Shown here: piece after piece, positions 19,901 to 46,381 of the stretch
Numbering within the stretch: the stretch's first letter is position 1
How the letters are laid out: every line of letters starts with the position of its first letter
Origin: Leptogorgia sarmentosa
Taxonomy: Eukaryota
Assembly: GCA_964658305.1 (NCBI GenBank)
Contig: OZ210885.1
Coordinates: 15,438,001 to 15,502,000, forward strand
Length of the DNA: 64,000 nucleotides
Direction: 5' to 3'
Notes under the pieces: generated by a model
What the model was told of the DNA's origin: nothing
What the model saw: only the letters and a program-made list of their open reading frames with translations
Database searches by the model: none
Program-made: the position numbers and the translations under genes

Positions 19901-22900
19901 AAAAGATACTATACATCTCTAAAAAGAGCACCCGAGTATAAGAAGCGTGTTACGTGGGTGGAAAAATTTCCAACAAACAAATATCTAAATGTATTGCTGT
20001 TGTCGAGTATATTGGAATTTTTCCACAGAACGTTGTCCCTCATGGAAATGCCAAACACTGTAACGCAGACTATGTAAGAAGTAGTGAAGCAGTCAAAACC
20101 AAGTTGACAGAAAAATTTAAGAACAACAATGGTAGTCTTCTAGCACCTGGAAAAATTTATGAAGAAATGGTTTTAGAAGATCCAGAAAACGCACCACGAG
20201 ATCTTAAACAGGTACAGAATGTGAAATATTTAAAGAATAAGAAAAATAGACACCAAACAAACACTGAACACAGAAGAAAAAACATTGCTGATGATGTTCT
20301 AAGTTTATTGAACATGTTTCATGAACACCCTTTTGTCCAAGAGATCATTCAAACAAAAGGGAAACCTCCCTCGGTTATTTTGTACCTTATGATATCTTGT
20401 GCGGATGAGTACGAGTTTCAGTTGGCAGCTTTTGAATTGGAAGAAAAGTACAGCAAATTCATCCCAAAGTTTCTTCCATACTTTGTTCGATTAACAAAAT
20501 CCCTTCTCGAGTTCGTCTTCTTGCCAAGCAAAAACAATAATTGCGTTCCCATAGACTGGAAGAACAATTCATGCGAAAGCATGAACCACATTCTGAAACT
20601 TTTATGCAACTGGAAAGTCCAAAAAATGACAGATTTAGTCGAGAAAATTTTCAGGATCGTGAAACTGCAGTACGCTGACATGAAACGTGCCCTTTATGGC
20701 ATGGGCAATTTTCAGATTGCTCCATGGATGGCAGCGTGCAAGGTCAGCCAAACCAACTGGGCAACTAAGTCGGAAGAAGAGAAAGACAAACTTTTCCAGA
20801 AATTTTTAAAAGGCGTCCCGAAGAAAGAAAAGAAAATTAAGTCGACGGATGGAGGAAGATTGGAAATCCCCACAACACAGAAAGTTGCAAGAAAACCGGG
20901 ACAACGTAAACGAATAAAATCTGTACGAACTCGGTAAAATTGGTTAAAGTTATCAATCGTGTATGCTGTTATTGATCTAGTTTGTTATTATTTTTTTTCC
21001 TTTTGTAAATAGTGAAATTGGTATATAGTAATAGTTTCTTCTTGTAAATAAATAGTGTAATATAGTCAGTAGTCTTGTTAATATAGTGTGACATAGTGTA
21101 GTGGAAAAGAAGTTTTAAATACAATACAAAATACAGAACTTATCCGGTTTAATTAACCTTTTTTGCAAGTCGCGCCTTTTTTGCAAGTCGTGCCTTTTTT
21201 AACGAGTCGCGCCAATTTAGTCGCGCCTCGCGCCTTTGAGTCGCTACTCGCATGCCAGGGTGCATTTTACACAAAAGCTACGCCGAAGTTACGCCCGTGT
21301 CTTGACAAAGTCACGCCAAGAGCAAATAGAAACTCTATAAGATCACAAAATCATCGAGCAACGTTGCGCCAACAACACGATTTATTATGCAATCTCGATT
21401 GTGATTGACTAAGGACCTATAGGCAATATCTCCATGTCTTGCCAGTTGCCACCTACAATGACATGGATAATTAATTATGTTATAACTGTCGTTTGCTGCA
21501 TGCGCGTAGACAAAATAGCTGATAAATGTATTTTCAATGCATAATAATTAAACAATTATTGAATTCGGTGTTCGCATTCGCTTCGGCAGATAATGCAAAC
21601 TTCGGCTTGATAATTCTCAATATCATGCTCAACCTAATCGAATAATTGTTAAATGTATGATGTAGGCAGTAGCCTGGTTTTAGTTGTTGAATAGCAACCG
21701 TCAGATGAGCAGCAAAAAGTTTTCAAGTTAAGTTTCAACAAAACCGTCAATTGTAATATGAAAATCTAATCAGGATATTGTATAGTTGTCTAATAGTTCT
21801 AATCAGTTTTTATGAAATTGCTGTTCAATCAGTGTTGCCTTTGGAGAGAAAAGGACAACGACCTAAATCAGAATCGATCCGATCCACAACTTTAGAAACA
21901 CAGTACTTTTCAGAAAAGAATGCTCGTTGCCTATGTGGTCTCAGTTCATCATCACCATGAAGATATAGTTGGACGCTCTCGTGTATGATGGGCTCGCACT
22001 TCTTAAGTGAGGGTAAACACCAATTGAGTTTGGTTCGCCGGGCAAGTGTTTCATTTGACTGCCCACCGGATTGTTGCTGTGCTCTCATAGCGCTATAATA
22101 ACTTTCTGCTATTGCCTCAGGCCCTCCTTTCGACAACACGATGTCGATAATGGCACACGATGGTGGTTTGGCAATGCTGTATATTTCTTCATTGGCGTAG
22201 AAGGACTTGAAAACATTCTGCTCATGCAATCGAACATCGAACTCCTTTCCATTGGCAAACTTCATCTTGAAAAGGACATCAAGGCCATCGGAGTTGATCG
22301 ACTCAAACAATACAAGCTTGGAATCTTGTGGATGCAATGGAATGCTGTCTGCTCCTTGCAACATAAACCATTCGGGACAAAGTAACGTCCAAATCCCAGC
22401 CATTATTGCCTCTTTGATGCGACTCATGTATCGATGTGCGAGTCGTGGATCAAAGTCCATACCAGACTGTTTTATGTGTAACATCTTGGAGGCAGTGGCT
22501 AGTACAGCTTTACATTCTTCAACTCCATAACTTTCATACATTCCATCCGATGCAATTAATTTAACCGACCCTTCTGAAAAAACCCCACAATGCAATGTTA
22601 CCAATGTAGCTGCATCAAATACTTCGAGAATTGACAGTGAACTATCTGATGTCACAGACAGGACTCTTCTGTTCAAGGACTTCTCTAATTCCAATGCTAA
22701 GCTCTGGTGATCTTTACAGATTTCCTCTATTTCCCGTTCTTTCCAAACAAACCGCTTATCCAAAGCATCCTTTCCCTGATCTTTGGTAATGAGCCAGCCT
22801 TCGAGCAGCGTTACCTGTTGGTACTTGTATCCTGGCTTTATATTTTCCCGGCCAGCTTTTTCTAAGCGAGGGTATGCTGCGGCATCACCACGAGAAGCTT

Positions 22901-25900
22901 TTTCTAACTTTGCTTTCACTATTGGCCACCATAATTTTAGCTTCCAGATTAGGGTATCAAGAGATTGTACCCGTAGCATTAAGTCAACCACTGGTTGCAT
23001 AATATCGAGGAAGGCCAGTAAATCTGCTACAAAATCATACCCAGCAATCATATACTGAAGCTCCTCTTCCTCATCCCGGACTGGATTGAGCAGATCAAAT
23101 GCTTTCCAGAAGGAAGCGTAGCTGTTTTCAATCTTTAGCCATTGGTCGTAGGAGGAGCTTGCAAATCGTTGGCAAGCAAAAGGAACAGGTCTTCGTGCAG
23201 ATTTGTCCACAAGCTGTAAAAATGCAAAACCTTTGCCGTTAGCCAGGATCGAATTGAATATGTTGCATCTTTTTACAAATCTTCTGAACACATCACCAGC
23301 TTGTGTTTCTGAATCTTTCACATTGACAACTGCGAGATTTAGGATATGGGCGGGATCCCAAGTAACAGGCAGTGCTAGACTTTCCAGGCCATCTTCTGCA
23401 ATCTCTAAAATAGCCATCAGCTGTTTGCGAAATCCACCGGCTTGATATGGCCCATCAGCTGCAACACCACAGAGCCTGGAAAGAACTTCTTTTGAGAAGT
23501 TGTTCTCAATTGCTTCAAGAAGGAGTTTGGCCAATACATCGTACGAGGCTTGCTCGAAATCCTTGTAGACAGCTGGAGCATCAACAGGAATTGGGCACGG
23601 AGTACCAGATTCATTTCGTCCAACTACAAGAACAGCTTGATTGGTAATTCGAGCAGGAGTAGCCTTATCTATTGTTGCCCATATGTGAGGGGGCAATTGA
23701 GTTGAAGGAAGAGGTTGGTTCAGCCAGTCGTTGATTTTTCCGTTTACTGTCTTTTCTAAACAGTGCAGAATTTCACTGAATTTATTACGGCCGTGACCGA
23801 TATTGCCAACATCTACCCCACAACACGCCAGAAAAGATATCATCGTTTCGAAATTTCTGGCTGCTGCCCCAAGCTTGAGATCGGTAATTGCTGCCCGAAA
23901 TATATTACCCGTAGCCGAAGCTTTTCTCTTCATCATCTCTTTCTCTCGCTGATATGTCTCCATTGCAGTTTTATGAACCTTCGAACTTTCACCGCTTAAA
24001 CATAGGTGGTCCATGCAAGATTTCTTTTGCCTATACCAGGTTTGATTTCCTCCTTCAATTAGTTGGCGAGTAGTCCTTTTATCCAGGAAAAGTCCATTGC
24101 CAAGAGTACCGTTACTTGATGAACAAATCAGCCGCTGGGCTTCAAACGCGCTGAGACGACGAAGATTTGGTTTGGCAGTGATGTGGAGTCTGAAACAAGG
24201 TAAACAACGGAGTACACTAGTTTCCGAAACTTCATCATAAAAGAATTCAACGAACTCTGATAAATCGGTTAACTCGTAAATATTCTTTGCTTCCCGCATT
24301 ACCGAGATATTTGCACGAACGTTATCATCTTCAAACACCAACTGTTGGAGTGTGGTATGCTGACTTCCAAATTGGTCAACTTTAAGGGACAGCTTTTCAA
24401 TAGCGCAAACTACGTCCTTTAACGAGGTATCACTTGGGGTCGGAACTGTTGCTTCAGTTGTTTTTTTAAATGCAAGCAATGTGGCCTGACTCTTGCCTTT
24501 TGATGTTGTTGGTTGACTTGGTTCGGAACTATGTCCACATTCTTCTTTCTGGGTGAAAAGATCGAGATCTTCTTTTGTGTTACTCCTACGCATGATTTCA
24601 ATGGAAACAGCAGAAGGCTGCTCTTCGACGGAATTAAAACCACATTTGGTGTTTTTTTCTTGTGAGGTATTCGTGATTCTTGAAGCTTTGGAGTCTTGTT
24701 TTCGAAGAGACTGGATCTCTGGTGCATTTGATGGTACAATAGTACACTTGGACGATTCCGCTTCCTTGTGCCATCTTTCTTTGTGTCTTTTGATACTTGA
24801 TGTATCGTTTCTGCACAATGATGCAAATTTCTCATCTCTTTTTCCAAGAAGTGACAGTTTTAAACATTCCATGCAAGTGTACTTTTCTCGTAATTTTTCC
24901 GCTTTTGTCGGACCAAGGTTGCGTTTCTTCTCTGGAACAGGAACACCCTTTCTCCATTCCCACGCTGAATAACGTTTAGAGGCTGTTGCGTTCTTTTCCC
25001 TTTTCTCATGGTCTTGCGTTTTGAATGAAGCGGACGTTCGAGGAATCGTCTTACTAGTTCTGTTTTCTATTAAAAAGGTAAGCGGGCTTTCCATATATAC
25101 TGGTGAACAAAGACAGTTAGAAATTACAATCAACTCATTAACCATAATAACCACTGCATTATTTACCATCATTGTTGGTGTTGCAAGTAGTGCAAATCAC
25201 TTTTTGCCCGAATCCTTCCTCCCCTTCTGGAATACCACAATGCAAGTGGACAAACTTTTTACACTCCTTACATGAATGAGCGTCGCCAACACTTTGGAAA
25301 CAAACATGACACACCTTATCCATGGACTATGGTCTAATTGTTAATTAAAACCAAAATAACATAAAAGATTGTTTTGAAATTTGCACTCCGGTTAAATAAT
25401 TCAACGCAAATCATTAATGAACAAAAACTGCTTTAAAAACGATACTGCTGAAACAGTTTATAGAAACATTTTTCATACCTGAATAGTGAATATCTGATTT
25501 ATTCAATGATATAAGAATATTATTGATATAAGAGCATTAAACACTTTTTACCAGTTCATTTGATGCTGGAATAACAGAATTACATCTTATTTCGATTATT
25601 TCAATATAATAGTTCAATACGTTTCAATCGATTATTTGTTCAATCAATATTGACGTCGTGTCAACGTATGTGTTGCGTAACCGCGTGTAATCGAGGCCGC
25701 GATCAAAGCCGATCATTCAGCAGATTACTAGTTTTATTCGGTATACTTTATGTTAATGTGGCAGGCTCGTAGTCTGACTTTAATTTACAGCCAATGGAAT
25801 ATGGCCCCCAAACTGAAACTCCTAAAGGTAGACTAATTTAAAATAACTAAAATTTCGTAGCTTTAACTTTTTATTTATACATTGTATCAAACTTTATAAA

Positions 25901-29858: not shown

Positions 29859-32492
29859 CAGACATGCCAAGTCTCACGGTTTTACCGTGAGACTCACGAT
29901 TTTGACGTAAATCTCACAGTCGCACGATTTTCATACTAAATCTCACGATAAATAGAAATTTTAAGGGTTTAAATAAAATTGAAGATTTTAAACCTTTTAT
30001 AGCAGTAGAGCAAAGTCGCTATGTTGATTTTAGTAAAGTGATAACTTGCAGCCCTAAAATTCGGGTCTGTGGTCAGGCTGCAACAGGCCATAGTATTATC
30101 AATATGGCGTCAAAACGATGTGCAGACAACATAAACTCATCAAGTGACGAAGAAACAGAATCTGATGATGATCAGACCAGCTACGATGTTCCTAAAGCAA
30201 ATCCTTCGAAGGGCGCAGAAAAAGCACCGAAAGGAAAAGGTGCTGCTGTCTATAAAGTGGTTTATAAAGCCGAATGGGGTAAGGAGTTTCCAATTCAAGC
30301 AGTTCCCTGCAACAACCATAAATTCCGCTGCATTCCATGTGGTAAAGATATATCATGTCATCACCAAGGTCTGGGGGATGTAAAGGTTCACTGTGGTAGA
30401 GAAATACATAAGAAAAATGTAGTATTGTGGAAGCGACAGAAGACAATTACATTAAGTAAACCAAACAAAGATACCACTCTTTCAAAAAACGTTATCAAGG
30501 CCGAAGTAATCATTACAAACTTTCTTGTTCAACATAATTTACCCATAGCGACTGCTGATCATCTTGGACCTCTTTTCAAAGAGATCTTTCCTGACAGCGC
30601 TATTGCCTCATCATACTCCTGTGGTAGAACTAAAACTAGTGCTATTCTGAATGAAGCTCTTGCTCCTGAGTGCCACAGGTACGTTGTGGAACAATGTAAA
30701 ACACATCCTTATAGTGTTGGTACGGATGGTTCTAATGATACAGGGATAGCAAAGATGAACCCTGTAAGCATTAGAATTTTTGATATTAACAAATCCAAGA
30801 CTGTCACCAACCGTTTTTTTGACATGTGCTTGACAGAAGGAGAGGATGGAGCAAAAGCTTTTAAAATATTTGAAGCTATAGAAGAGAAATTCACCAGGGA
30901 TTCTATGCTATGGTCAAATTGTGTTAGTCTAAGCATTGACAATACAAACACAATGATTGGAGTCAATGATTCCGTAGCTTCACGTTTCCTTGAAAGAATC
31001 CTGAAATTTTTATTGCTGGATGTCCATGCCATCTAGCACATATTGCTGCCAGTCATGCCAATGATGGCTTCAGTGACATTTTGGGACTCAATGTTGAAGA
31101 TGTCTGTGTAGATTGTTTTTATTGGTTCGACAAAAGCTCAAAGAGGAAAGGCAAGCTTCTTGAATACTTTGAGTTTTGTAATCAAGATTATCAGGCTGTC
31201 TTAAAGCATCTGTCTGTCCGATGGTTGTCATTACAACGCTGCATGGAAAGAATTCTAAAAAAGTTTCCTAGTTTGAAGTCATACTTTTTAAGCGAAGATG
31301 CCACTGACCAGCGATTCCAAAGGTTGTTTCAGTGGTTTGGTAATCCATTGTTGGAACCTGCCTTGCTCTTTCAAACTGCAGTAATTTCATTGTTTACAGA
31401 TTTCAATCTCCTTCTGCAGAGAGATGAACCGACTATTCATGTGGTAAAGCCAGCAATGGAAAGCCTTGCAAGAAAACTTGCCAATCGAATTGTTCTTCCA
31501 AGCATGATGAAAGATGTTAACTCGGCTTTGGAACTAGACCTTGATGATGAAAGTATCTTTAAGCAAAAAGAAACAATATTCGTAGGAGGCACCACAAAGT
31601 TTACGCTCAACAGATTACGCAACAATGGCATCATCAGTGAAGCAAGCTACAAGAAAGTACACTTAGCAGCTCATCATTATTTCAAAAGTTCTTTGAAATA
31701 TATACTGAATAAATTTCCAATTAACAGTGATGTCTTTTGCAATGCTGTCTGGGTGAATGTACCATCACGACATGAAGCCACCTGGGAAAGTGTAGAATTC
31801 TTTCTGGAGAAATTTTCATCACTCACTTCGATCCAGAATATCAATTTTGACAGTCTATACGAAGAGTTCGTAGATTATCAGACCATTTCAAATGATTCTA
31901 TTGGTGAAAGTGTATGGCAAGAAGCAAAAGTTATTGATGGCAAAGATGAAGATAGAAATGAGAAGGTACATTATCGAATTGACATTCTGTGGTGGCACCT
32001 AGCCCAGAAGCGGTTCAAACACCTACCAAAGGTTGCAGAGATCGTTCTCGTCATTCCCCATAGCAATGCTGAACAGGAGAGACTTTTTAGTATTGTGCGG
32101 AAGAATAAAACATCAAGCCGATCCAACCTTCAACTCCATGGCACCTTATCCAGTATTTTGGCAGTGAAATCCCAGTACCCAGAATCATCTACACCATGCC
32201 ATAAATGGAAGCCTGGCGATCAGTTGCTTAAGGATTCAAAGAAAGCAACCATGAATTATAATAAGAAGCATCAGCAGGACACTGACAATGATTCCGAGTA
32301 AATGATTTACTTGTCTTTGTGAGAACAAACTTTGTGAACATTGTTGAAATTATGTTTTAACTGAAGTTATAATACTATGCAAACTCAACTGTGTATTTTA
32401 CTTGTCTCACTATTTTTACCTTTTTCTCACTATATTTTGGGAAAGAAAAAATGAGTCTCACTATATTTACTTGCTAGAGGTTGGCATGTCTG
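29859..32492. mobile_element. hAT transposon with a probable 6-bp TSD (hAT6-like)
   Basis: TIR CAGACATGCCAA / TTGGCATGTCTG; flanks ATATTA / ACATTA (5/6 match); no 8-bp duplication. Confidence 0.8.
30104..32301 (+). pseudogene. hAT transposase with one frameshift (~30995)
   Basis: Zn finger CIPCGKDISCHHQGLGDVKVH, SCGRTK, TDGSND, SIDNT, (C)PCHLAH after the shift, SVRWLSL, IPHSNAEQERLFS. Confidence 0.9.
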
Positions 32493-33189: not shown

Positions 33190-34455
33190 TCATTGTCCTC
33201 CAATTCCAAGGTTTCTACCTTCTTCATTTAGGAAATATTCTGCAAGTGTATCACAAATGATAGATGCATCACTTTCATGATCTCGCCCTTGTACCCCAAT
33301 ATTATCTGGCTGATTAGTTTCCTCTCTTACATCAAGCCATTCTTGCAAGAAATCATCTCGCCTCAATTCACAAACGTTATAGACCACACAAGAAGCTGCG
33401 ACGATGTACGTTGCAGACTCTACTGCCATATCAACACGTTTAAGAAATCTTCAAAAACGTCCCTTGCACCTTCCGAAAGTATTTTCAACGGTCATTCGCG
33501 CCCTGCTGAGCCTTTAATTGAAATTGCGCTGCCAACGAGGTGTATCTGCGTTTTCGGGGTAGGCTTTCATAAGCCATTCCAACAGAGGGTAGGCAGGGTC
33601 TCCAAGTAATACTGGACTGATATCAACACCAAAAATGGTTTGATCCATATTTTCTTCGAAAAGTTTCTTTTGAACACCCAAGTTATAGAGTTCTGAATTA
33701 AAAAGAACACATGCGTCATGGACGCTCCCTGGCCAACCCACCACTATATCACGAAAGAGGTAACGACAATCGATGACTGCCTGCATAACAATGCTATGGT
33801 AGCTCTTCCTGTTAACGTAATCCGTATGATTTTCCTTCGGAGCTTGGATAGCAATATGAGTTCCATCAATCGCACCAGCACATGCAGGGAAACCCCATCT
33901 CAACTTATAAAGTCTCATAACTTCTCTCAAATCTTGGCCTTTAGGTATTGATAAAAAGCGCGGTTTCAGTTTTTTTAATATTGCCATACATACGTCTTTT
34001 ATACAGAGACAAACAAATGCGGTGGAAACCCCAAATAAATTTGCCACTGTTCTGTATTCTGATGTTGAACCAATGTAATAAAGTGTAATTGCCAGGCGTT
34101 TTTGTGGGGAAATTGCATGCCGTAGCTTTGTATTTTTTCGCGTAATATCACCTGTAATTTCTGATAGAATATAGTTGAAGGTGTCTTTGGAAATGCGGAA
34201 GTTTACATACCATTCTTTCTGCGGTAGACTCGTTAAAACAATGTCAAACCAGTGATTACTTTGAGGAAGCATCCAAACTGACCGGTCGATCGGAGGATTG
34301 AGAATTGCAAATATGGCCATGATTAACTGCATTCGTTTTATATGACTTCGCCTATATCTTCTGATGTTTGAATGACTGCTGAGCATCTTTTCTGTTAGTG
34401 GCAGTGAACTTCTTCTGGACGATACTAAGCACTTTAAAAATATTGGATCCGCCAC
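33190..34455 (-). pseudogene. Harbinger (HARBI1-like) DDE transposase
   Basis: NFRISKDTF, GFPACAGAIDGTHI, YVNRKSYHS, GWPGSVHD, LLGDPAYPL, RMTVENTFG. In-frame stops at ~33514 and ~33450; start codon reads GTG. Confidence 0.92.
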
Positions 34456-35470
34456 GTTGTTTAAAAAACGTGGAATATCGCGCCAAAAATAAATTTATGC
34501 TAGCAGTACCAGAACCATTTTTATCCGAACCGCACTAATTTTTTTGTCTAATGTAAACGGGCCTGTTTAGCAGTACCAGAACCATTTTTATCCGAACCGT
34601 ACCAAAAATTTTCCGTAATGTAAATGGGCCTTTTGTTTACAGTCTTCGATCATGAAAACCAAAACCAGTTTTATAAAGGCACAAGAGCACTGATGAAACA
34701 TGGCCACCAGTTTCCTGAACAATAACTTCGATGCCACCAGCTCATCGACTGAAGTTGAAAGTGATGGTTGCTCATCAATTCAACAGCACAGTAGCGAGGA
34801 AGAAGATACAATAGTTGTTTCAAGCCAATACGCGCCGTATGCAGATGAGCCTCTCACTCCAAGTTCAAACTGTGACGATGACGGTGATACTCATGCAGAT
34901 TTATACGATAACGAAAGACAAGATTTAGATGGACTGACACCCGAAACACTGGCTGCTCGTCAAGATGGGGACATTTGCCTTGATTCTTGGTAAGTCCGTT
35001 TAACAATTTCAAGTTTCGGCGAAGCAACAAGTTCGTAGTTATAATCTTTGGTTATGTCTACAGGTGCAAATGCGAGCACTGTCGCACACAAAACGTCGTT
35101 GGGGCAACAGAATATCGTTGCTGTAGAGAGGTTGTGGACGCCTGGGGAAAATATGAAGTGAAATCGTGGACAAAATATTCGACTCGTCGAGTTGTGTCTC
35201 CGAGTATCAAATCGACTGGTCCACTGTCGCGTTCGACTCGTCAATAATTACATTATACACACATTACTGTTCGTTCTCCACTTACCAATGTGCATCAAGG
35301 TTAGTATTAGGGTTGCGCATATATTGAGAAATAATGTCAATGGGCAACTTGCACTTAAGGTTAAAGTTGCTCCCTACACTTTACAGTATAGAAATGTAGA
35401 AAATGCATCGAGTAGATAAACTCTTTGAGAAGATAGTGCTTTTTAAAAATCGAAGTTTGTATATAATGTA

Positions 35471-35604
35471 CTGTATTCTCTCTATTTAGCCCCCCCCCCC
35501 TCTCAAATAAGCCCCCCCCCTCTCAATTAAGCCCCCCTCTAAAGGTCCTGAAATGAATAAGCCACCCCCCCCCCCCCCCAGGGGGCTAAATAGAAAGAAT
35601 AAGG
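35471..35604. mobile_element. Tc1/mariner-pogo-type MITE
   Basis: TA|CTGTATTCTCTCTATTTAGCCCCC ... GGGGGCTAAATAGAAAGAATAAGG|TA; a related end occurs at ~41344. Confidence 0.65.
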
Positions 35605-36656
35605 TATAACAGTGACAATCAAAATTGATCACAAAAGTGACATCACTACTGTTGCTACGGTAACAATGACAATTAAAGATGGCAGGTATTTTGCCTTTAA
35701 ACGCATTTTGCTTTTGAAAACGCCTGGTTACCCACATTTTTTATTTTGAGAAAACATTTTCTTGCAGTACCGTAAATTATCGGATCAATTTTAAAAAAGT
35801 TCTGTAGAGCCAGAAAAATTTTGAAAAACCCTGTTTATAAATGTTTTAAAAATTTAGTTCTTTAGACCAATTTCCAACTGTTTGATTGTCACTGTAGATA
35901 TGGTATACAGATTTTGATTGCTAGAAAGCACCATCACCTCAAAGGTTTGATCTAACAAAATCTAACTGATGCATTTTCTACAATCTACAAACTGTAGAGA
36001 GTCACCTTAAGAAAAAAAATTAATCTGGGAATAAGAAAGAATATTGGGATCCCACCGTGGTCAGGCAAATTTTTTCAGCCTGCCCGTTGTGGACGCACAA
36101 TCAGAGTGACATCACAATGCATTCTACACCTGAGTACATTTGCACTGTAATAAGATTCATACATGAAAGAATATTTCCAGAAAGAAGTTATCAATCTTAG
36201 AAAAACTGCAAAGTTTGGTTACAAAATGTTTGTATACATTTGTATTACATGTGGAAATTGGTAACTAATTTAGTTACCAATTCATGCACATAATACAAAG
36301 TATACAAATTTGCTAACTTTGAAGGGCTGTATGTTACAACATATTGCAACCAAACGTTGCAACATTACTAATTCCAAGATGCTCTTTCTAGCTGTCGTGA
36401 TAGATTTTGTTCCTTTCGCTTAGATTTAAATTTAGTCTAAATCACAAATCGTCCATTGGTTCATAGCCTGTGAACAGGCCCTCGCAAGCCTGCAGGGAAT
36501 AAAACGGGTGCGATGAAGCGAGGGCCTGTGGACATTCCTATTAGAACACTGTTCCGCCCCTTTCTAATTTTCCCGTGGTAATTATTCGCGCATCAATCAA
36601 ACAGTCACGAGTTATATAATAATTTCTAATTATAATGTGATCTGGGCGGTACTAAC

Positions 36657-37274
36657 ATGAGCGCACAGGCCGTATGTCGCTTATGCAAAAAACAATTGAT
36701 TGCATTCGGCTCAAGACTTCCGAGAGTTTCTTTATTTGCAGTTCTCAAAAACAAGGAATTAGTCACCGCACCACAAACTACTGTAGAACTACATAAACTG
36801 TTCCTGCAAATGGGTTTTCCGCTTCAAAAAGGGAAAAACTTCTCCGAATTGTGCTGCTTATTGTGCGCTCGTAAGACGGTAAGATGTTACAATTTATTTG
36901 AGTCAATAACAAAACATTGCAATGATATAGGGCGCCAAGAAGACTCTACTTCAAGACCTGCACTTCAAAGTCCAAAGCTTCGCCAAAAACGAACAGTGGT
37001 TGCCCATTCTCCAAGTGGTGTTTCCCCTACGGTTAAAAAATGCAGATCTGGCCATGGACAGGCTGTACCTACTTCGAGAAGGGTATTGAGTTTTAATGTT
37101 GACATCCAAAAAGAAAACGAACCAGCTTGCACTTCCAGCTGTGTAGAAGATTCAGAAAATGGCAGCCCAACTCTCGAAAACACTGTTGAAGAGCAAAACT
37201 CAAAGAATGAGATGAATATTGACGACAGAATGAAAGGTTTCATGGATTTATCTGGAACAGCGACAGTCGTAAAA
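36657..37274 (+). CDS. First exon of an Academ ORF (CxxC..CxxC zinc-binding N-terminus), truncated
   Basis: MSAQAVCRLC...LCCLLCARK; donor GTAAGT at 37275; downstream exons are deleted. Confidence 0.55.
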
Positions 37275-37399
37275 GTAAGTAATAATACCTTTTATATTTA
37301 ACGTTGTGAACTATAGTTATAGAGCTTTCAGTCGAGCTTTGTATGCAAATTATATTTTTGTGTCGTATAGATTATAGTTGGTTGGCCCAATTCAGGAAG

Positions 37400-38860
37400 A
37401 ATCATCGAACATGAATGTAAAGATGTTAATGAGAAGAAAGCATTGAAGTGTATTGCCAGACAATCCCCATTGTCACTACAATGACAATTTCCCTTACATG
37501 TTGAACAACACAGATGGGCTGGTGTTTGTGGAGATACATCATCACAAAAATATCCATATAATCCAACCCTTAAACAACAATCACTGTTTAACAATATTTG
37601 CTTTAACTCTTTGTTTATCTCAGATAACTGTCTGTTTGTACCATATATTATACTGTAGGCTTGTTCTCCATCCCTACCAGCCCGGCCAGTTTGCTGCACA
37701 AGTTCTGTGATGCTTTGCGGAGGGCCAAAATGGATAACATACCTGACACTTGGAAAGTTAATACCCATTCCAAGGGCACATGTTGCAATAACAACTCTTT
37801 GTGTACCATCATTTTGGAAGTCACTGACTGTTTGATTCTTATGACTGTCCCATGTCTTTGCATAATAAACACCTAGCAATGGTACTCTTTCCCCTTCCTT
37901 TTCAACAAATGCTTCACTTTTTAAGATCATTAGCAGGTAACTCAACACACTTGAGATGTCATTGAATGTCCTACAAAAAATTATTGTTTGTGGAGTATTT
38001 TCACATTCCCTTTGGATCATTTGAGCAATCCATTTCAAGTGATCCAGCTTATCACATTCATCATTTATGTGTACAAAATTCAGAAAAATTGGAGACACAT
38101 CAACAATCACTGGGTTAATCATACCACACACCTTATACAGGGACTTTCTTTCATCAAGCTTCACAGATGCAGTAAGAGCAAGAAGAGGTGTTCCCGGTAA
38201 AAATGAGCGCAAATTTTTAACTCTTCCAAATGCTTCTCTGAATGGGACCTGTTTTTTTCCTCGTCTATCAAGGGAAGCTTGACCACTGAAAAATAACATA
38301 CAGAGACATCCTATAGTATAGAACTGTATGTAATACAATTACCTATATTCTTTAGCTCGTAGAAATCATCCTTACCAGAGCGAAACAGAATGAACTTCAT
38401 CCACAACAAGTGTCACAATTTGCTTCCCTAGCTGGTTGTCTCTCAATTCACCTAACCATTCATCTGATAACCAACGTTCCGCACTTCCGTACACAATATC
38501 AGCATCATATCCACGTTTCAGCTCGCTTTCATCCTCCTCATCACCCAAAGCGAATGCTTTCAATCCTAATCTCTTTAGTTCTCTTACTTGGTCGTTTATT
38601 ATCGACAAAAGTGGTGTCACAACAATAACAGTGCTTTTACCCTCCAGACACCACAGCTCCTCCAGGACGCTTGGCAAGATTTGAAATATCAAGCTCTTTC
38701 CGTATCCAGTGGGAAGAACGGCTAAAACATCTTTTCTTTCTGAAACCGCCTTTATACACGCTTTCTGTCCACTTTTTAAATGCCTAACGTGTCCAAATTT
38801 CGCTAAAGATTTATCTAAAACCTTATCGAAACTAAAATCGCTACTGGAACACCCAGCCAT
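37400..38860 (-). CDS. RecQ-type SF2 helicase (2 exons, 3' end truncated or chimeric)
   Basis: LPTGYGKS, DEVH, LALTAS, VIATCALGMGINFP, QQTGRAGRDG, Zn site C..R..CCSTC; intron ~38374-38286. Confidence 0.9.
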
Positions 38861-39235
38861 ATTGTTTAGTAAATAAATTTTCGGCAGAAAAAATATTTAT
38901 GCAAATTATCGAGATTGACCAATCAGAGCCTGATACCAGATTCTGGTATCACGGAACAGTGTTCTAATAGGAATGTCCACAGGCCCTCGCTCCATCGCAC
39001 CCGCTTCAGGTCGCACCCGTTTTATTCCCTGCAGGCTTGCGAGGGCCTGTTCACAGGCTAATTGGTTCATGCATTTAAAATTGTTTTTTGAATACTAGTT
39101 CATGTGATAAAGCATGAATTTTTATGCACATGTCAAAAATGCCATAGCCCCTGCTTTATGCAACACTGGACAGTGCACCCCATTCCGTGATATACCAATT
39201 AATTTTTGTACAATGTTAAATACTATTTTCTGTAG

Positions 39236-39903
39236 GCACAGCTATGTTACATGAAATGCTAGAAAAGTTTCGTAATAGTGAGACTGTGTCTAAGGTTCTC
39301 GAGGAAAGTCCCTCATCTGAGGTTTATTGGGCGATCATCAACTCTTCTCATTGGTCTTCGACAAAGGCTGTAACAGATGCAGATTTGCCACTTCTAATCC
39401 AATGTCTCTTAGAAAACGAAATCTTGTTATCACGAAAGTATGAGGTAGACCAGCTAAGTGAAAGGTTGGCTTTTTTGGGATTGCTGGAGAAAATGAAAAA
39501 GAATGCAGATCTTTGCTTCAGTCTATTCTGTTTCAGTGATGACGCAGTTCTTACAGCAGAAAGATTTATCGGTCTCATTGACAGCAAAGTTGAGATTCCA
39601 ACTGACTTTTCTAAAAAGCAGTCGTATGATTGGTTTATTCAGTACATTCAGAGTGCAAGTGCTGAGCAACTGCAGTGTTTACTAAAGTTCGCAACATCTT
39701 TCAAAACAATCCCTCCTTATGGTATGGAACATAAAATTACGATCAAGTATCTCCCAGATGGTGATGAAAAAGCAAGTTTACCAAAATCCCTGGCTTGTTT
39801 ACCCATCCTGAGTCTTCCCACAGTACACTCCAGCCAAACGAAATTCAACGAAAGTGTAGATCTTGCTTTAAAATTCGAAAGCGAAGGTTTTTCGAGCTCC
39901 TAA
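39236..39903 (+). CDS. Terminal exon of a HECT E3 ligase (C-lobe), upstream exons lost
   Basis: LLKFATSFKTIPPYG..ITIKY..LPKSLACLPILSLP..ALKFESEGF; catalytic Cys present; acceptor TTCTGTAG. Confidence 0.8.
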
Positions 39904-40438
39904 ACAAAAAGGAAAAAAAAGGTAATAAAAACCATATGGTAAAGTACTACTAACTTTATCCTCTGCAGGAGCTGTCTCCCAAAGACACACATTAGGTATG
40001 TTGTTTCAAACACTTTGTTAATATTGCTATCAGGCCTGTTAATTGTTTCTGGTCCTTTGAGTTGGTATTGTTATGTTAATATATTGTACCTATACTGTTG
40101 GCACTAGTACTGTAGGTATATACTATGACTAGTAAAAATATTACTACTTTGTCTTCAAATTTGTTAACACAGAGGGATGTGTTGCAGGGACATGCTGCAG
40201 GGACAAATCCCATCATGTATATTTTCTGTCATAGGCAACCAGCCAACCTCAATAGATGTGCCTACAAAACACCATCAATAGCATATTTTACAAGCTGGCA
40301 ACTGGTATTTTCTTTAACCTTAGACATATTGTGAGAACCTTTGATTATGCATTTAAACAGAAAAAAATCAATATTTGCAAATTTGGACTATTATTTTTTG
40401 CTATTAGATACTCTTAACAAAAAACCCCTGAAATTTCA

Positions 40439-40537
40439 ATTTCATTATGTTTTATTAATTAGAATGTTTAAATAAGACAGTATATATATTATATACTGTC
40501 TTATTTAAACATTCTAATTAATAAAACATAATGAAAT
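40439..40537. repeat. Near-perfect 99-bp palindrome (47-bp arms)
   Basis: ATTTCATTATGTTTTATTAATTAGAATGTTTAAATAAGACAGTATAT, a 5-bp spacer, then the exact reverse complement. Confidence 0.9.
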
Positions 40538-40558
40538 ACTATTATACAATGGGCAATA

Positions 40559-40949
40559 CAGGGTGTATCATTTATATCTGACTGCTGGGGTGGTTGTTGT
40601 CAAACATCACCTAAAACAGGCTTCATAGGGTGTAAATTTATGAAATGTTGTTGCAGTCGTTAAAGTCCTAGGCAATTTGGTGTACAATAAGTCCATCGCA
40701 CAACCTCTCTTTTACAAGCTGCTAAAACATTTCCCAAACTTACACTCCATGAATGATACCTTGTTTAGTTGGCGTTTGACAACAACCACCCTGGCAGTTG
40801 GATGTAACATTTTCAGATAAATTTTAGTGGTGGAGTAATCAGAAGACCTTCAAATATCCATATTAACAAAAAAACAACAATCGAAAATTAAGCTGCTTGT
40901 TTGGTTGATAAGCTGTTTTATAATTGTTTGCTTTTTTTGACACACCCTG
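40559..40949. mobile_element. Degenerate Tc1/mariner-type MITE
   Basis: TA|CAGGGTGT ... ACACCCTG|TA, with an internal inverted repeat GGGTGGTTGTTGTCAAAC / GTTTGACAACAACCACCC. Confidence 0.6.
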
Positions 40950-41058
40950 TAGATTTACTTGCTTTACTTATGAATTTTGTTATGTATTGTACAACAGGTG
41001 CTAAAATGTATATAATGGTTAATGTTATGTTATTTGTTAAATAAAGTTTATAATTAGC

Positions 41059-43842
41059 TTACTGAATTGCTTGTTGTAAGCTTATTACCACATTGAGATA
41101 AATGTCCAACCCAAATGACTGACTTTCAGCTAAAGGATTGTACTGCAAACAGTCATGCACATCAGTATCATCTGGTAAGTCTACGTATACTTGAGGGACC
41201 TCAATATGTGACCCACTTTCAATGTTGTCACCCCACTCCTGACTTGGCAATGGTCCATTCCAGTCTATACTTGATTGCACAGCCTCCATCTAAATTTACA
41301 CATACTGCTATGTACTTTTCTATCATGACCATATTTATATGTACCATATTCTCTCTATTTAGTCCCCCCTCCCTAATACATCCTCTCTCTCTAATAAACC
41401 CTCCTTTTTTAAGTTAAGAAATTTATTAAGAACCCTCTCTATTAAGCCCTTCATTATTAAGCTAGTAGAATTTTTTACCATAAAATAAATATGCCCCCCT
41501 TCTCTCAAAAGGTTCTGAAGAAAATTTGTTAAAATTTCTTCATCAAATGTCAATTTTTTATGTATGCTGTGCACTTATAGTTACAGTACATGTATTCTAA
41601 CTGTAAACAGTACTCACGAAATGAACAAATCTACATTATTTAGAACTGTTGTATGTATTGCTCACCTCGCTGATTTCATGACTTGAACTGTTGCTGTGGT
41701 GACCCCACAACCATAGCTGTGCTGGAGACATGTTTCGTTCACTTGACAATGGGTGGTTATTCCATCCATTACCAAACTCCAACAGATGAGCATTTATCTG
41801 AGGCTCAAATACATATCTCAAAGAAAACAGGTGTACATCATTTGTAATGTCAAGGAGTCCTTCATGTTCCATGTATGAAAACAGGTTGTAATAAATATAG
41901 GTGCATCCTTGGAAGAGATCCCTCCAGAATCTTTCAATTCTTTGATTATGGCAGCTCTTACCAGCAATGAAACTGCCCCTGTTAGGACCTCGGTCTTGAT
42001 GTGTGAACATAAACCAAGCCACATCGACATTCTCACAACCTTGATCGGCTCTTACACGAGATGGTAGGCCATATTGGGTGACAGCTTCTTTAAATAGTGT
42101 CAGAACAGTATCAGCTCTATTGTTGCAGCTGCATCTTAAATACATGATGTGCCTGGAATAGCCATCAATCCCACCATGTATCACAAAACCCCATCTGAAT
42201 GCAAAAATGAAATAGCATATCTATTAAAAAGAAAAGCATGGAATGTATACAGTTAATAGTTACGTAAACCATATGCAGTGGCTTCTTGGCGACACATTTA
42301 AACTAGCGAACAAATGAAATTTGTCTTTGTAAAAACTGATTGTTTACAACAAAAATTTGCCGATGTGCGGCTTTCAGCTTATCATAAAACTTACATGATT
42401 GAAAATGCAGGAGCAGGAAATAGCATTATAGAGAACATACAAATAATTTCTTTTTCGGGGAGGGGGCATGGTCCTGAACCTCCCCAAAGGTCTCGCACCT
42501 TTGGCACTTGCATTGCCCCCCCTCCAGTCTGAACAGCGACACCCCCTTGCTGTTTACCTTATTAATTTGTGATTACCATCAATATGCCACATGGATAATG
42601 GTGCTTGAACAAAATATGTTCTTCGGTTAACTGTTGTCAACCGTAAGGCACGCATTAGTATTCCTTGTGGATCTACTCTTCTCATACTATCCCGGATTCT
42701 ATTCCACTGAATATTGAAGCCTCTAGCTCTTAAGTTCCCACGCATCTGTCGATAACCACAGTTGGGAAATTCACTCACAATTCTTGCACTATATGGAAAA
42801 ATTATGCAACTAAGTAAATTTCGAAAATTATAGCATTTGGGGTGGGGACTGTTTTAGGTTTCAGATGAAAAATATGGATCAATTTACTTTAACGCCCCCC
42901 CCCCCCCCCACCTCAGGTGACGTATATTCGTTCTTGAATATAAGCCCTCCTTTTATCATGTGAAAAGTTAAAAAGAAAAAGGGAAAAAAGTCAGAAATTT
43001 CATTTAAAATTGCATCAAACTTTCTGAACAGGCTCACTCTCATATCTCTTCGGTCGACATTCATTGCCTTTATTTTTGTTGTCCATCGATTTCAGTATGT
43101 TAATTGCTTCTTGACTAAGCGCTATGCTAAAATTTTTAACCGCATGAGTAGAAGTGTGTCACAGTGACTGCTTTCTGTCCAAGGCCAAAATAACGCAGGA
43201 AAAAATTTAAAAGACTATTGAAACAGATAGTATAGGGGGGCTTCTTTTCAAATGCAAAATTTCGACACACAGTATACAGGTGGTGGGGGGGGGGGGGCTA
43301 TATTCAAATGCTAAATTTTGTCATTTGAATATATGCCACCCCAAGCGAGGGGGGGGGGATTGTTAAAGTAAATTGATCCTGCTTACTTACATCAGTTGAT
43401 CTAAATCTGAATCACTCATACAACTGTAGGTATTTCTCTTTAACTGAAATTTGTCAATGCGCCTTTGAACCGTCTTTGGTGATACAGAAAAAAATTTCGA
43501 AATTTGAACGTTGGTGAAGTTATACTCAATATAAAGTTCTAGCTGTTCTTTCGGTATGATAACTTCTGGGCATCCACGGCAGCCTGTCTTCTTAAATAAC
43601 TTTTCTTGAATTTCTTCAGCCTTGTTGTTTAAAAGAAGTTCATGAGCACTGTTTAGTAATGTCACGAGTTGGAATGGAATATTGAAAGATACATCTGCTG
43701 CATTAAGTAAATAAATAATTCTTTCCAAGTGAAGGCAAATATAATCCCTACAATCTTCATTCTCTGCTGTTATTCCATCTATACGGTTGATTAGAAACTC
43801 TATACTTGAGCGAAGGCCATTCTGCAACGACGCCGTCGCCAT
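41059..43842 (-). CDS. IS3EU-type DDE transposase, 4 exons, apparently intact
   Basis: Exons ~43842-43391, ~42788-42558, ~42194-41666 and 41289-41059 join in phase: [63 protein letters not shown]. Confidence 0.88.
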
Positions 43843-44684
43843 GTTTAAAAACAAAAACATACATGATTCCGATTAATTATGCAAATATGCACCTTTTTCA
43901 ATATATCAAAAGGCGACGAGTCGAACCCGTGGTGAGAATCAGCACGACGACTCGAAGACGGGAAAAGATTTTGTTTAGTTCGACCCGACCCGACTCGGCG
44001 AATCGGCGCGTGAACAGTCGAGGCGTGGGGGCACGACGCATCAAAACGGGATATTCGACTTGTCGAAACCGACATTCGACGAGTCGAAACCCACAATTGA
44101 CGAGTCGAACGCGACAGTGGGCCAGTCGATTTGATACTCAGAGACACGACTCGACGAGCCGAATATTTTGTCCACGATTTCACTTCATAGGAAAAATGGT
44201 CTTTGATGGGTTCATTGAGAAGATGAAATGCATCACCGAACATGAAGATTACAGTGCAATGTCAAATAAAACAGTCTTATTGCAAGTTGCGCCACTTTTG
44301 AGGAACAAAGATGGAGTAAAATATAAACGCTGTGCTGGAACCCAAGAAAACGAGTTAGTATATTATATCTGTTGTAACGTTTTTACCTTCGATACGTGTC
44401 GCGTTATATATATATATATTATTTTATTGAAGGTTTGTTCGATCAGTTGCCTATAGGTGGATTCTAAGATGGCTTTGTGGGTACATTGGATGGGATAATA
44501 GAAGACCTCTGCCAGCTTGTATATATGAACATATAAGGACCAAGTACCAAACTGGACAATCAAGGCGTTACAAGAGGGTGTGACCAATGTCTTGACCTAG
44601 TTCACAGCAGGGTTGCCACAGTTTTCTTTGGAATGCCCGGAACGATTGCAGAAGGTACTCCCGAAAAACTGCATGGTAAACCAT

Positions 44685-45245
44685 GTGTCTACGTATCTGC
44701 CGATGTGCTCGTCTATATGTACGTGCCCATGTCTACATATCTACGCGTCTACATGTCTACGCGTCTACATGTGTACGAATATACATGTCTATCCGTCTAC
44801 ATGTATACGCGTCTAGATGTATACGCGTCTACATGTCTACGCGTCTACATGTCTACATGTGTCGCGTCTACATGTGTCGCGTGTACATGTGTACGAATCT
44901 ACATGTCTACGCATCTACATGTGTCGCGTCTACATGTCTACATGTCTACGCATCTATATGTCAACATGTGTCTACTTGTCTACACGTCTACATGTTTGTA
45001 CAAGTCTGCGTGTACATGTCTACGCAAGTCAAGTCCATCTGCACCTGTAAATACGTATGTATATGTAATATGTGTTTATATAATGGGAGCAAACCCAAAC
45101 GCTGACCCTAATGCTGACCCTAACCCTAATGCTAACCCTAATGCTGACCCTAACCCTAATGCTCACCCTAACCCTAATGCTCACCCTAACCCTAATGCTA
45201 ACCCTAATGCCAACCACAACGATAACATGAACCCCAGCCCTAGGC
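44685..45245. repeat. Subterminal-type tandem repeats: (GTCTACAT/GTCTACGC)n, then (AACCCT/AATGCT)n
   Basis: Visible at 44685-45035 and 45090-45245. The same TCTACGCGT motif recurs at ~48850-48879. Confidence 0.8.
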
Positions 45246-45347
45246 TCATCCTAATTAACAGAACCGAAATTATATAGCTTTTTACAATAAACATTAATTT
45301 ATAAAGTGAACATTGTATCGTAATCCAGAGGCATAAAAGATAGATGT

Positions 45348-46381
45348 TTAATCATCAACTTCGTAAATTTTTTTCACATCGTCTAAAAAACATTGAAATA
45401 AATCGTCCTCTTTATGGATGTGGCGCCAAATAAACTCTGCGAGATGACTGGAGTGCTGACCTTGCTTCACTCCAAATGTTGGTAAACCTGCCTTTGCCAA
45501 CCTCCACAGTCCCTCCACTTTATTGGTATGCTGGCCGTCCTTGTTAACAAATTCAACAGAATGGTTCACTGTCGCATGTTTATAACCATGTTTTTCAAGA
45601 TTAACGTACGACTTCCAGCAATCTGAAATAATCAGCGTCCCAGGCTCAATCCACTGTTGAATAATAGGCAGGAGAGTGGCCTCTGATCTACAATCCATGG
45701 CAGTCATAAAACACTTTCTGGAGTCACTCTCTATGCCACCAAATACCCATTGTCCTTTTACAACATGCCCTCTATGGTACTATCTTTTCCCAAACAAACT
45801 TTCATCTATCTGCACAACCTTACCCTCACCTCCTATTTTACAGCTTTCATGCATGATAGTCACTTCGCAAACTTCACGGCAAAAAGAGTCCCAATCAACA
45901 GCTGTGTTAGTAGCTAAGGACAACTGCTGAATAATTTGGTGTTGCGGTAAATTAACTGACCACCAGTGAGTGAACTTAAGTACCTCTTCCATGCTCATGT
46001 TAGATTTTTCGAACCAACTGTCTTTTCTTATACTTGCTTCTCTGTAATGATCCTTCTTACCAATCTTTTTATGGCAAAGCCACTTGTAGCCATCCTTTGA
46101 TCACAACACTTTACCAGTTTCATCAAACTGCCACATTCGCTACAAGTACGTTCCACCGCTAATAAATTTTCTGCTTTCAACCAGTCCAGCATATGTTCTT
46201 TGTTGGACAAAATATTATCTTTAAGGAAATCATACGTCGTGAAATTTCTTTTTGCCGCTCTAGCGCGTCGATCGTAACTTTGTGAAGCCGGTGTCAAAGT
46301 TTGTGTGTGTCCTTCGACCAACGCAGATTTGGAAACGCCAACTTGGCACCCCATATTCTTTTTTCGCTTTACCGTATACAT
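45348..46381 (-). pseudogene. Merlin (IS1595/ISXO2-like) transposase
   Basis: Zn ribbon CSECGSLMKLVKC; GGEGKVVQIDESLFGKR*YHRG..QWVFGG; IISDCWKSY; TVNHS; HTNKVEGLW. One frameshift (~46095) and an in-frame stop at 45780-45782. Confidence 0.88.

Follow-up and report, generated by a model that had tools for sequence, protein, structure and literature searches.

A stretch of 64,000 nucleotides of the Leptogorgia sarmentosa genome (contig OZ210885.1; the whole stretch is called the window, with position 1 as its first letter) contains at 35152–44189 an IS3EU-type element in which a transposase gene and a piece of a HECT ubiquitin ligase gene lie tail to tail. DNA transposons are usually viewed as a transposase between two end repeats, and the locus raises the question of whether the HECT piece belongs to the element or is there by accident. 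The original prediction, made from the nucleotide letters of the window, held that HECT is an ancestral and maintained module, since a second, divergent element in the same window (copy 1; the element at 35152–44189 is copy 2) appeared to share the layout. The analysis described here indicates that 35152–44189 is very probably an IS3EU-type transposon with an unbroken transposase gene and a HECT tail that is likely the decayed remains of a companion gene passed on jointly with the transposase. The window as a whole is AT-rich eukaryotic DNA (GC content 0.32–0.44) with many transposon genes.

The outer boundaries of the insertion consist of the following parts.

35152–44189: IS3EU-type element, 9,038 bp
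35146–35151: left copy of the target site duplication (TSD) GGAAAA, 6 bp, perfect
44190–44195: right copy of the TSD GGAAAA, 6 bp, perfect
35152–35245, plus strand: left terminal inverted repeat (TIR), 94 nt, tip TATGAAG
44096–44189, minus strand: right TIR, 94 nt, tip ...CTTCATA

The two 94-nt ends are 96% complementary to each other and GGAAAA stands on both sides, so that the TIRs and the perfect 6-bp TSD of the original prediction were borne out. The contigs of four public runs (X1, X4, X5 and X9) were compared with the region 34800–44600. In run X5 (organism B), a 677-nt contig covers 34800–35145 and continues with 44190–44394. This joint, from 35145 to 44190, leaves out 9,044 nt, equal to the 9,038-bp element plus one 6-nt TSD copy; its shorter side has 205 letters, 6 letters fit both sides, and its depth is that of the flank. 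The same joint, with a shorter side of 24 letters only, is contained in run X4 of another sample (organism A). As these contigs join the flanks exactly, the 9,038 bp came as one mobile unit, and the whole interior, including the HECT piece, is missing from the empty allele. The cleanly empty site of a related sample also means that the family was recently mobile.

The flanks read across the element as one open frame (..EVVDAWGK followed by MVFDGFIEK..), and excising the element together with one GGAAAA restores the frame of the interrupted host open reading frame (ORF) at ..AWGK/MVFDG... Portions of the IS3EU element are also contained in X5 and X4, where they presumably come from another genomic place or from the other allele. 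In X1, the depth is 74 over the transposase part and 72 in the flank, an equality that would fit a single copy, depth not being the same as copy number. Run X9 covers only the high-copy repeat 36190–36411 of the region compared. We conclude that 35152–44189 is a real, recently inserted IS3EU-type DNA transposon.

The transposase gene occupies the right part of the element and is read from the minus strand.

43391–43842, minus strand: transposase exon 1, ATG at 43842, with an in-frame ATG also at 43860
42558–42788, minus strand: transposase exon 2, ending in HKLI(R), with a phase-2 donor AG/GTAAAC
41666–42194, minus strand: transposase exon 3, DDE integrase-type core with the motifs GIDGYS, RADQG and NQRIE
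41059–41289, minus strand: transposase exon 4, including the stop codon

The predicted spliced frame has 1443 nt (480 codons) and no internal stop, and its three predicted introns of 602, 363 and 376 nt are all bounded by GT..AG (3/3). The predicted protein is colinear with homologues of ~491–502 aa, covering their residues 5–489, in agreement with the earlier claim of a four-exon transposase without visible lesion. Exon 3 matches the Pfam families rva_4 (E 2.7e-68) and rve (1.8e-4), and a Pfam scan of exons 1 and 2 gave no zinc-finger family, the HHCC motif itself not having been looked for. Among 846 candidates from a protein search with the transposase, 725 are related at E <= 1e-10. The closest show 64–69% identity, and those with a name are mostly cnidarian, followed by sponges, hemichordates and a bivalve; relative P0014 bears the source name 'transposase InsO family protein'.

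Copy 1 serves as a comparison within the window.

11116–16526: copy 1, with 266-nt inverted arms (99%)

Its transposase has five exons on the minus strand with GT..AG introns. Its HECT gene, on the plus strand at 12138–14139, is fuller than that of copy 2 and is divided into an N-lobe exon (12138–12869, matched by the ligase relatives P0127, P0126 and P0131), middle exons, and a C-lobe exon (13870–14139, Pfam HECT E 4.7e-8). The transposase cores of the two copies are 54–63% identical, and in both genes the Arg codon of HKLIR is split after its second base by a phase-2 intron, which confirms the predicted intron at this site. The window thus holds two diverged families in one genome with a common intron position and a common gene layout. 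The arms of copy 1 terminate in AAAAATCGC; neither TA tips nor a TSD stand at the arm ends, and no empty-site joint for copy 1 was present in four runs. The true ends of copy 1 may be lost or lie elsewhere. Runs of (GAGTA)n are situated at its edges, at 10937–10952 and just right of 16526.

The HECT gene of copy 2 lies tail to tail with the transposase, and it is much shorter.

39148–39903, plus strand: HECT ligase gene remnant, with an open ORF at 39220–39903 (227 codons) and the catalytic Cys in LACLPIL

The ORF matches Pfam HECT at E 2.1e-13 over profile positions 212–304 of 306 only. It aligns to residues 427–645 of a 648-aa relative, P0001, with 37% identity, and this match begins exactly behind a polypyrimidine-AG at 39235. 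Two relatives extend the similarity upstream to 39148, weakly and across in-frame stops at 39217–39219 and 39145–39147. From the left end of the element to 39148, a tblastn search with ten full-length or long relatives gave no match at E <= 5 except for one stray of 27 residues on the opposite strand (E 1.9), and neither tblastn at thresholds of E <= 5–10 nor our own profile of the whole HECT domain revealed an exon upstream of the remnant. The search upstream relied on tblastn and on the lack of room because Pfam misses the N-lobe exon of copy 1 at 12138–12869, so that a Pfam miss upstream in copy 2 means little. The space between the left TIR and a nested element (see below) is ~1.2 kb, much of it repeat (X1 depths 297 and 1491), which is too small for the ~1.3 kb of missing HECT coding sequence.

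The HECT region of P0001 starts near residue 290, and copy 2 starts at 427, so a complete N-lobe is not present. Everything before residue ~427 of the relatives is lacking, including ~137 residues of the N-lobe, and what is left is the C-terminal ~40%, ~220 codons at the end of a ligase of ~650 residues. The HECT gene of copy 2 is a 5'-truncated remnant, and the ligase of this copy, with most of the N-lobe absent, is predicted to be inactive. The C-lobes of the two window copies share ~29–34% identity (34% over 47 aa by tblastx), and the expectation of a convergent C-lobe clearly distinct from that of copy 1 was correct. The claim that both elements have the same transposase/HECT architecture stands for the convergent layout, whereas on the HECT side copy 2 has only a C-terminal remnant.

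Whether the two genes belong together was examined by searching with the transposase only. From an alignment of 27 transposase cores, 80 metagenome loci were retrieved, in which the transposase was set on the plus strand. HECT sequences were detected in these loci by an iterated local C-lobe profile, which found 37 ORFs in 32 loci, and then by Pfam HECT at E <= 0.01, which confirmed 28 ORFs in 27 loci. HECT lies downstream of the transposase in 26 loci, and it is on the opposite strand in 26/26 and on the same strand in none. Of the 23 loci with 3 kb or more on the downstream side, 13 have a Pfam HECT C-lobe there (in 9 cases at the gathering score; the HECT of one of the 13, L023, is 9.5 kb from the transposase and may be unrelated). 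Of the 19 loci with an upstream side of 3 kb or more, 2 have HECT on it (Fisher p 0.003 for downstream versus upstream, the loci not being independent).

In four loci (L014, L015, L030 and L031), a pair of TIRs and TSDs encloses both the transposase and the HECT C-lobe. Their tips are TATGG, the TSDs are AGCTAC; TAAAC or ATAAAC; GATAGA; and CTCTCG (5–6 bp), and in three of the four the N-terminal domain of the ligase is also inside the TIRs. The TIRs of a further locus, L019, are cut by the contig end. The HECT protein P0001 and the transposase P0041 each come from one contig of 10,225 bases, which may be the same in both cases. A tip pattern, TATG followed by ~15–17 nt and CAAA(A), is common to L014, L015, L031 and positions 35152–35175 of the window; it is possibly the terminal binding site of the transposase.

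The catalytic Cys is conserved in 29/29 C-lobes, from the 27 loci and both window copies. The ratio of non-synonymous to synonymous substitution rates (dN/dS), calculated with our own Nei-Gojobori script, is 0.17 for HECT (83 codons) and 0.13 for the transposase in the pair L003/L034, and 0.14 for HECT in the pair L014/L030, where dS is saturated. These values point to purifying selection on the C-lobe in the relatives. Distances between transposase cores correlate with those between C-lobes (Mantel r 0.49, reached in 0 of 2000 shuffles, 29 pairs). The sequence comparisons support the view that the convergent layout of transposase and HECT is not a chance neighbourhood.

Eight full-length ligase relatives of 576–680 aa (P0001 and P0122–P0128) can be aligned from end to end, 60 columns of the alignment being invariant, and Pfam HECT is found in 8/8. 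The zinc finger family zf_C2HC_14 scores above the gathering score in P0126 and P0127, weak matches to zf_C2HC_14 or UBZ occur in P0001 and P0124, and there are sub-threshold CUE matches in P0122 and in a separate relative, P0129. An AlphaFold model of P0001 has a mean predicted local distance difference test score (pLDDT) of 76.5 and gives 105 Foldseek matches at E <= 0.001; those listed are all HECT ligases. The N-terminal domain was modelled from the L019 copy with a pLDDT of 82. Its best matches, with VIA Z scores of 7.3–5.2, are mostly ubiquitin-like domains, and Foldseek gave no match for this domain at E <= 0.001. As VIA Z scores below 8 are common, the ubiquitin-like fold suggested by the model is a lead only.

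A scan of 1.84 billion representatives with the HECT ORF of copy 2 gave 258 matches at E <= 0.001, which marks a small and distinct HECT clade to which the ordinary cellular families are not close. A HECT alignment search of proteins gave 15 matches, none of them named, and the search limited to longer proteins gave a single match. In the Atlas, the nearest clusters consist of eukaryotic HECT proteins and are found most often in Chordata and Mollusca. The ten clusters that were sampled contain 10 named proteins, all of which are called 'uncharacterized protein' (Hydractinia symbiolongicarpus, Anneissia japonica) or have plain gene ids (Sanderia malayensis); one Hydractinia symbiolongicarpus sequence is present under four accession numbers. 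The relatives had been expected to carry 'G2E3-like' annotations, and 0 of these 10 proteins do.

Several observations weigh against a companion gene that was kept over a long time. The 23 long loci are not all independent, since 13 of them belong to two record series whose names begin with the same prefix; of the other 10, 6 have HECT. No Pfam-supported C-lobe ORF is present in 10 of the 23, among which L028 has a match to our own profile only and L017 and L078 show weak N-lobe traces. Other genes are found downstream of the transposase in some of the loci without HECT. A convergent AAA ATPase lies in L073 (2665–3741, minus strand), and two large convergent ORFs of 945 and 604 aa without a Pfam family lie in L042 (11496–16162, minus strand). 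L046 has an ORF with RING and B-box domains 4 kb away (14662–15654, plus strand), and L048 has a CUB ORF.

A quick maximum likelihood tree of the transposase was calculated from 39 cores, made up of both window copies and of the 37 loci whose downstream side is 2 kb or longer, with the other 43 loci left out. Twenty-five were labelled as HECT-bearing, including those with matches to the local profile only and the two N-lobe traces, and L023 was counted as lacking HECT. Copy 1 groups with L019, L029 and L032 (SH-like approximate likelihood ratio test 93), and copy 2 groups with L002 (91). HECT-bearing and HECT-less copies are interspersed, and the tree needs 11 label changes compared with a mean of 11.6 for shuffled labels (224/500 shuffles were as low). 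Identical or near-identical cores differ in their HECT label, as in L041/L042, where the cores are the same, and L023/L031. The transposase tree cannot separate repeated loss of HECT from repeated gain.

The correlation between the two genes is also reduced on closer analysis. The Mantel r is only 0.285 (3/5000 shuffles, n = 26) when three near-duplicates are dropped and 0.278 (2/5000 shuffles) when only Pfam-supported C-lobes are used, and shared host ancestry could produce such a signal. The co-phylogeny proposed in the original prediction was thus examined as a distance correlation, and the co-divergence is modest, with r 0.29 in the set without near-duplicates. In copy 1, a variant with a 61-bp deletion (13926–13986) in the C-lobe exon of HECT occurs in runs X1, X4 and X6, as a joint from 13925 to 13987, and X1 contains both forms with depths of 55 and 107. 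In copy 2, the X4 version of the HECT ORF has 8 non-synonymous versus 3 synonymous codons among 12 listed differences, a count that may be incomplete as there are 34 further X4 differences beyond those listed. The differences of the copy 2 HECT from X4 look unconstrained.

In our reading, the scattered HECT-less copies reflect an old companion gene that has often been lost in recent times. The idea of HECT as an ancestral, maintained module is supported for the lineage by the 13/23 loci with a downstream C-lobe, the four TIR-enclosed pairs and the dN/dS of ~0.15. It fails for copy 2 itself, where the gene is truncated at its 5' side and its codon differences are mostly non-synonymous.

Alternatively, the HECT fragment might be an accidental passenger that was captured once from a host ligase gene and is unlinked to the HECT of copy 1. 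GingerRoot elements are reported in the part of PMC6839031 consulted to carry acquired fragments of host genes, copy 2 holds only a fragment that appears to be unconstrained, and the two window C-lobes are as diverged as noted above. A single capture would not account for homologous HECT sequences in the same place and orientation in 26 loci that were baited by the transposase, nor for their presence inside TIRs in four of these. The nearest full-length relatives (P0001, P0123, P0125 and others, 32–38% identity) share N-terminal domains with the ligases of L014, L015, L019 and L030, and the cellular HECT families, from which a captured piece would have come, are distant in the scan of 1.84 billion representatives with its 258 matches. 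We regard a chance capture as very unlikely, and the decay of a companion gene as the better description of the HECT tail.

The HECT ORF could also be a working short product of 219 codons, for example a C-lobe decoy, rather than a relic. Its reading frame runs for 227 codons without a stop and has a Met at codon 9, the catalytic Cys is retained, and an 88%-identical protein of 219 aa that starts from the same Met is encoded on other contigs. In the 90% cluster of this protein, 4/9 members have 219 aa; the remaining 5/9 have only 112 aa, and a gene caller blind to introns would in any case start a last-exon ORF at its first Met. The X4 version differs mostly at non-synonymous sites among the listed differences, and the weak upstream homology passes two in-frame stops. 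A HECT domain that lacks most of its N-lobe has, to our knowledge, no way of taking ubiquitin from an E2 enzyme. A functional short protein is therefore very unlikely, and a relic of the longer companion gene is favoured here as well.

The element has received further insertions of its own, which bear on the origin of the HECT segment and on the space around it.

36464–39060: nested TIR element, 2,597 bp, inverted ends of ~95 nt, 9-bp TSD ATTGGTTCA at 36455–36463 and 39061–39069
36636–37301, plus strand: ORF in the nested element, 221 codons, Cys-rich N terminus, no Pfam family
37328–38896, minus strand: RecQ-like helicase gene of the nested element, in two ORF pieces, 38896–38372 (DEAD) and 38338–37328 (Helicase_C)
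36108–36434: high-copy short repeat or repeats, with the nested element in or beside it
40153–40922: stretch between the 3' ends of the transposase and HECT genes, 771 bp, with two hairpin repeats
42876–43379: small unit in transposase intron 1, with 31-nt inverted ends at 42876–42906 and 43349–43379 (90%) and C/G runs

The arms of the nested element are 100% complementary at 36464–36513/39011–39060 and 96% at 36502–36556/38952–39006. In X1 and X5, contigs pass directly from 36454 to 39061 and leave out 2,606 nt (2,597 + 9); the shorter side of this joint has 20 letters only. Since the target is a high-copy repeat, this joint represents empty copies of the repeat and not necessarily of this IS3EU element. 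The repeat at 36108–36434 has a depth of 1491 in X1, compared with 72–74 in the flank and the transposase, and there are many loose ends at 36197–36411. The helicase core is recognised by Pfam (DEAD E 2e-18, Helicase_C E 5.8e-18), with a short intron that we infer between the two ORF pieces. No Pfam family for the RecQ-specific zinc-binding/RQC region was found in it at E <= 0.01, and the label 'RecQ-like' rests on motifs recognised by eye (DEVH, ..TGRAGRDG..). The 221-codon ORF gives a weak Atlas lead to zf-AD (score 0.92, low recognition). With an apparently whole helicase and the Cys-rich ORF, the nested element encodes no transposase and is non-autonomous; its 9-bp TSD would, we assume, fit an element of the MULE or Merlin type.

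The stretch 40153–40922 is likely a later insertion; one X4 contig is without it and joins 40152 to 40923 (depth 2.6, side of 30 letters, 3 other letters between). Short units with long runs of C or G recur in the element in both orientations, at 35469–35606, 41359–41417 and 42876–43379. That the HECT segment is itself a separate mobile insertion, like the one with the RecQ-like gene, is very unlikely: the element does accept insertions (36464–39060, 42876–43379 and probably 40153–40922) and X1 and X4 contigs break near 39097–39138, just upstream of the remnant, but no inverted or direct repeat pair brackets the segment at 39100–40150, which answers the original concern that HECT might have boundaries of its own, the breaks are accounted for by the adjoining high-copy repeat, and the relatives hold HECT at the same position without such boundaries.

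The surroundings of the element contain other mobile sequences. A 326-codon ORF of the PIF/Harbinger DDE type (33514–34494, minus strand; Pfam DDE_Tnp_4 E 6.6e-19) is situated just left of the interrupted host ORF. For the host ORF, the label 'P2X7 C-terminal-like' was considered and dropped, as 0 Pfam families matched at E <= 1 on either flank piece. To the right of the element there is a tandem-repeat block (44537–45277, plus strand) of repeated short units followed by an (NPNA)n-like run, and an ISXO2/IS1595-like transposase domain (45348–45779, minus strand; Pfam DDE_Tnp_IS1595 E 1.5e-17). Large ORFs elsewhere in the window are at 21825–25196 (minus strand, 1123 aa), 29906–32301 (plus strand, 376 and 435 aa) and 57429–59085 (minus strand, three pieces). 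The sets at 29906–32301 and 57429–59085 end in a motif (..ERLFS/ERVFS..) that we take to be that of hAT-type transposase C termini.

DDE transposases of the IS3/integrase type bind the end repeats of their element, excise it and insert it with a staggered cut. By analogy, the transposase of copy 2 would bind the end repeats and subterminal repeats resembling CGACGAGTCGAA, excise the element, and reinsert it with a stagger of 6 bp. The companion of whole relatives would be a protein of ~600–680 aa made of a ubiquitin-like domain (the fold lead mentioned above), a C2HC/UBZ-like finger, a CUE-like motif and a two-lobed HECT domain. The predicted activity is that of an E3 ligase, and its target might be a host factor or the element's own transposase. 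Copy 2 may have moved without a ligase of its own, may have been helped in trans (for example by elements of the copy 1 type), or may have lost the 5' part of the gene after landing.

We propose only tentatively, and on balance lean against it, that a large animal clade of IS3EU has long carried a dedicated ubiquitin ligase under purifying selection as a factor for host manipulation or self-regulation. Ligase-type host-manipulation factors of this kind are so far known mainly from viruses. If the proposal is true, the recent insertion of an element with a cut-down ligase would mean that the ligase acts in trans or is dispensable for cut-and-paste. A ligase that travels with the transposase in cnidarians, echinoderms and other animals would allow the elements to reach the protein turnover or DNA damage signalling of the host, and it would explain the multi-copy, unnamed HECT genes in the annotations of animal genomes. 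An intact transposase next to a decayed ligase in a single copy makes the need for the ligase in cis testable.

Compared with known systems, copy 2 is closest to IS3EU/GingerRoot. In the text of PMC10045372 that was available, these elements are described as having TA..TA termini, TIRs and a TSD that is usually 6 bp, and as having no HHCC zinc-binding domain before the catalytic core. TA..TA tips, a 6-bp TSD and TIRs are all present at 35152–44189, and the transposase is of the DDE integrase type with an IS3-like core (Pfam rva_4), a putative member of the IS3EU/GingerRoot transposases. Unlike the elements described, copy 2 and many of its relatives have a convergent HECT gene between the end repeats. 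The terms HECT and ubiquitin have 0 occurrences in the portions of the IS3EU/GingerRoot literature searched, including PMC10045372, PMC6839031 and PMC12730594. No description of a HECT-bearing IS3EU was found in this literature or in wider searches on HECT, G2E3 and ubiquitin ligases with DNA transposons; Repbase entries and Reports were outside the search and may annotate a second protein.

The HECT domain itself can be compared with cellular E3 ligases such as E6AP/UBE3A, NEDD4/Rsp5, SMURF and HUWE1. The full-length relatives resemble these in their two-lobed fold (Foldseek E 3.5e-14 to Rsp5) and in a catalytic Cys ~35 residues from the C terminus. They differ in that the sequence similarity is weak, with E6AP as the best PDB match (8.7e-10 over 60 residues), and in their N-terminal layout of a ubiquitin-like domain, a C2HC/UBZ-like finger and a CUE-like motif. 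G2E3 also has its HECT domain at the C terminus, and it has PHD/RING-like fingers N-terminal to HECT; a Pfam scan of the eight full-length relatives at E <= 0.05 gave neither a PHD nor a RING family.

The closest parallel for the gene content is in fungi. In the sections of Kojima 2025 (PMC12730594) consulted, fungal IS3EU families carry TET/JBP dioxygenase and alpha-kinase genes, and a passive transfer of TET/JBP between superfamilies is argued. HECT was seen here with the IS3EU type of transposase only, the one superfamily to which the search extended. Like the HECT-bearing elements, the fungal ones have their extra genes in a conserved order between the TIRs, and their tips, TAYGG..CCRTA, resemble the TATGG of L014, L015, L030 and L031 (PMC12730594, as far as consulted). 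The cargo and the hosts are different, being dioxygenase and kinase genes in rust fungi and truffles according to the same part of PMC12730594 and HECT in animals in the elements described here. The fungal TET/JBP-bearing families of that report provide a precedent for extra genes in the superfamily to which the Leptogorgia sarmentosa element belongs.

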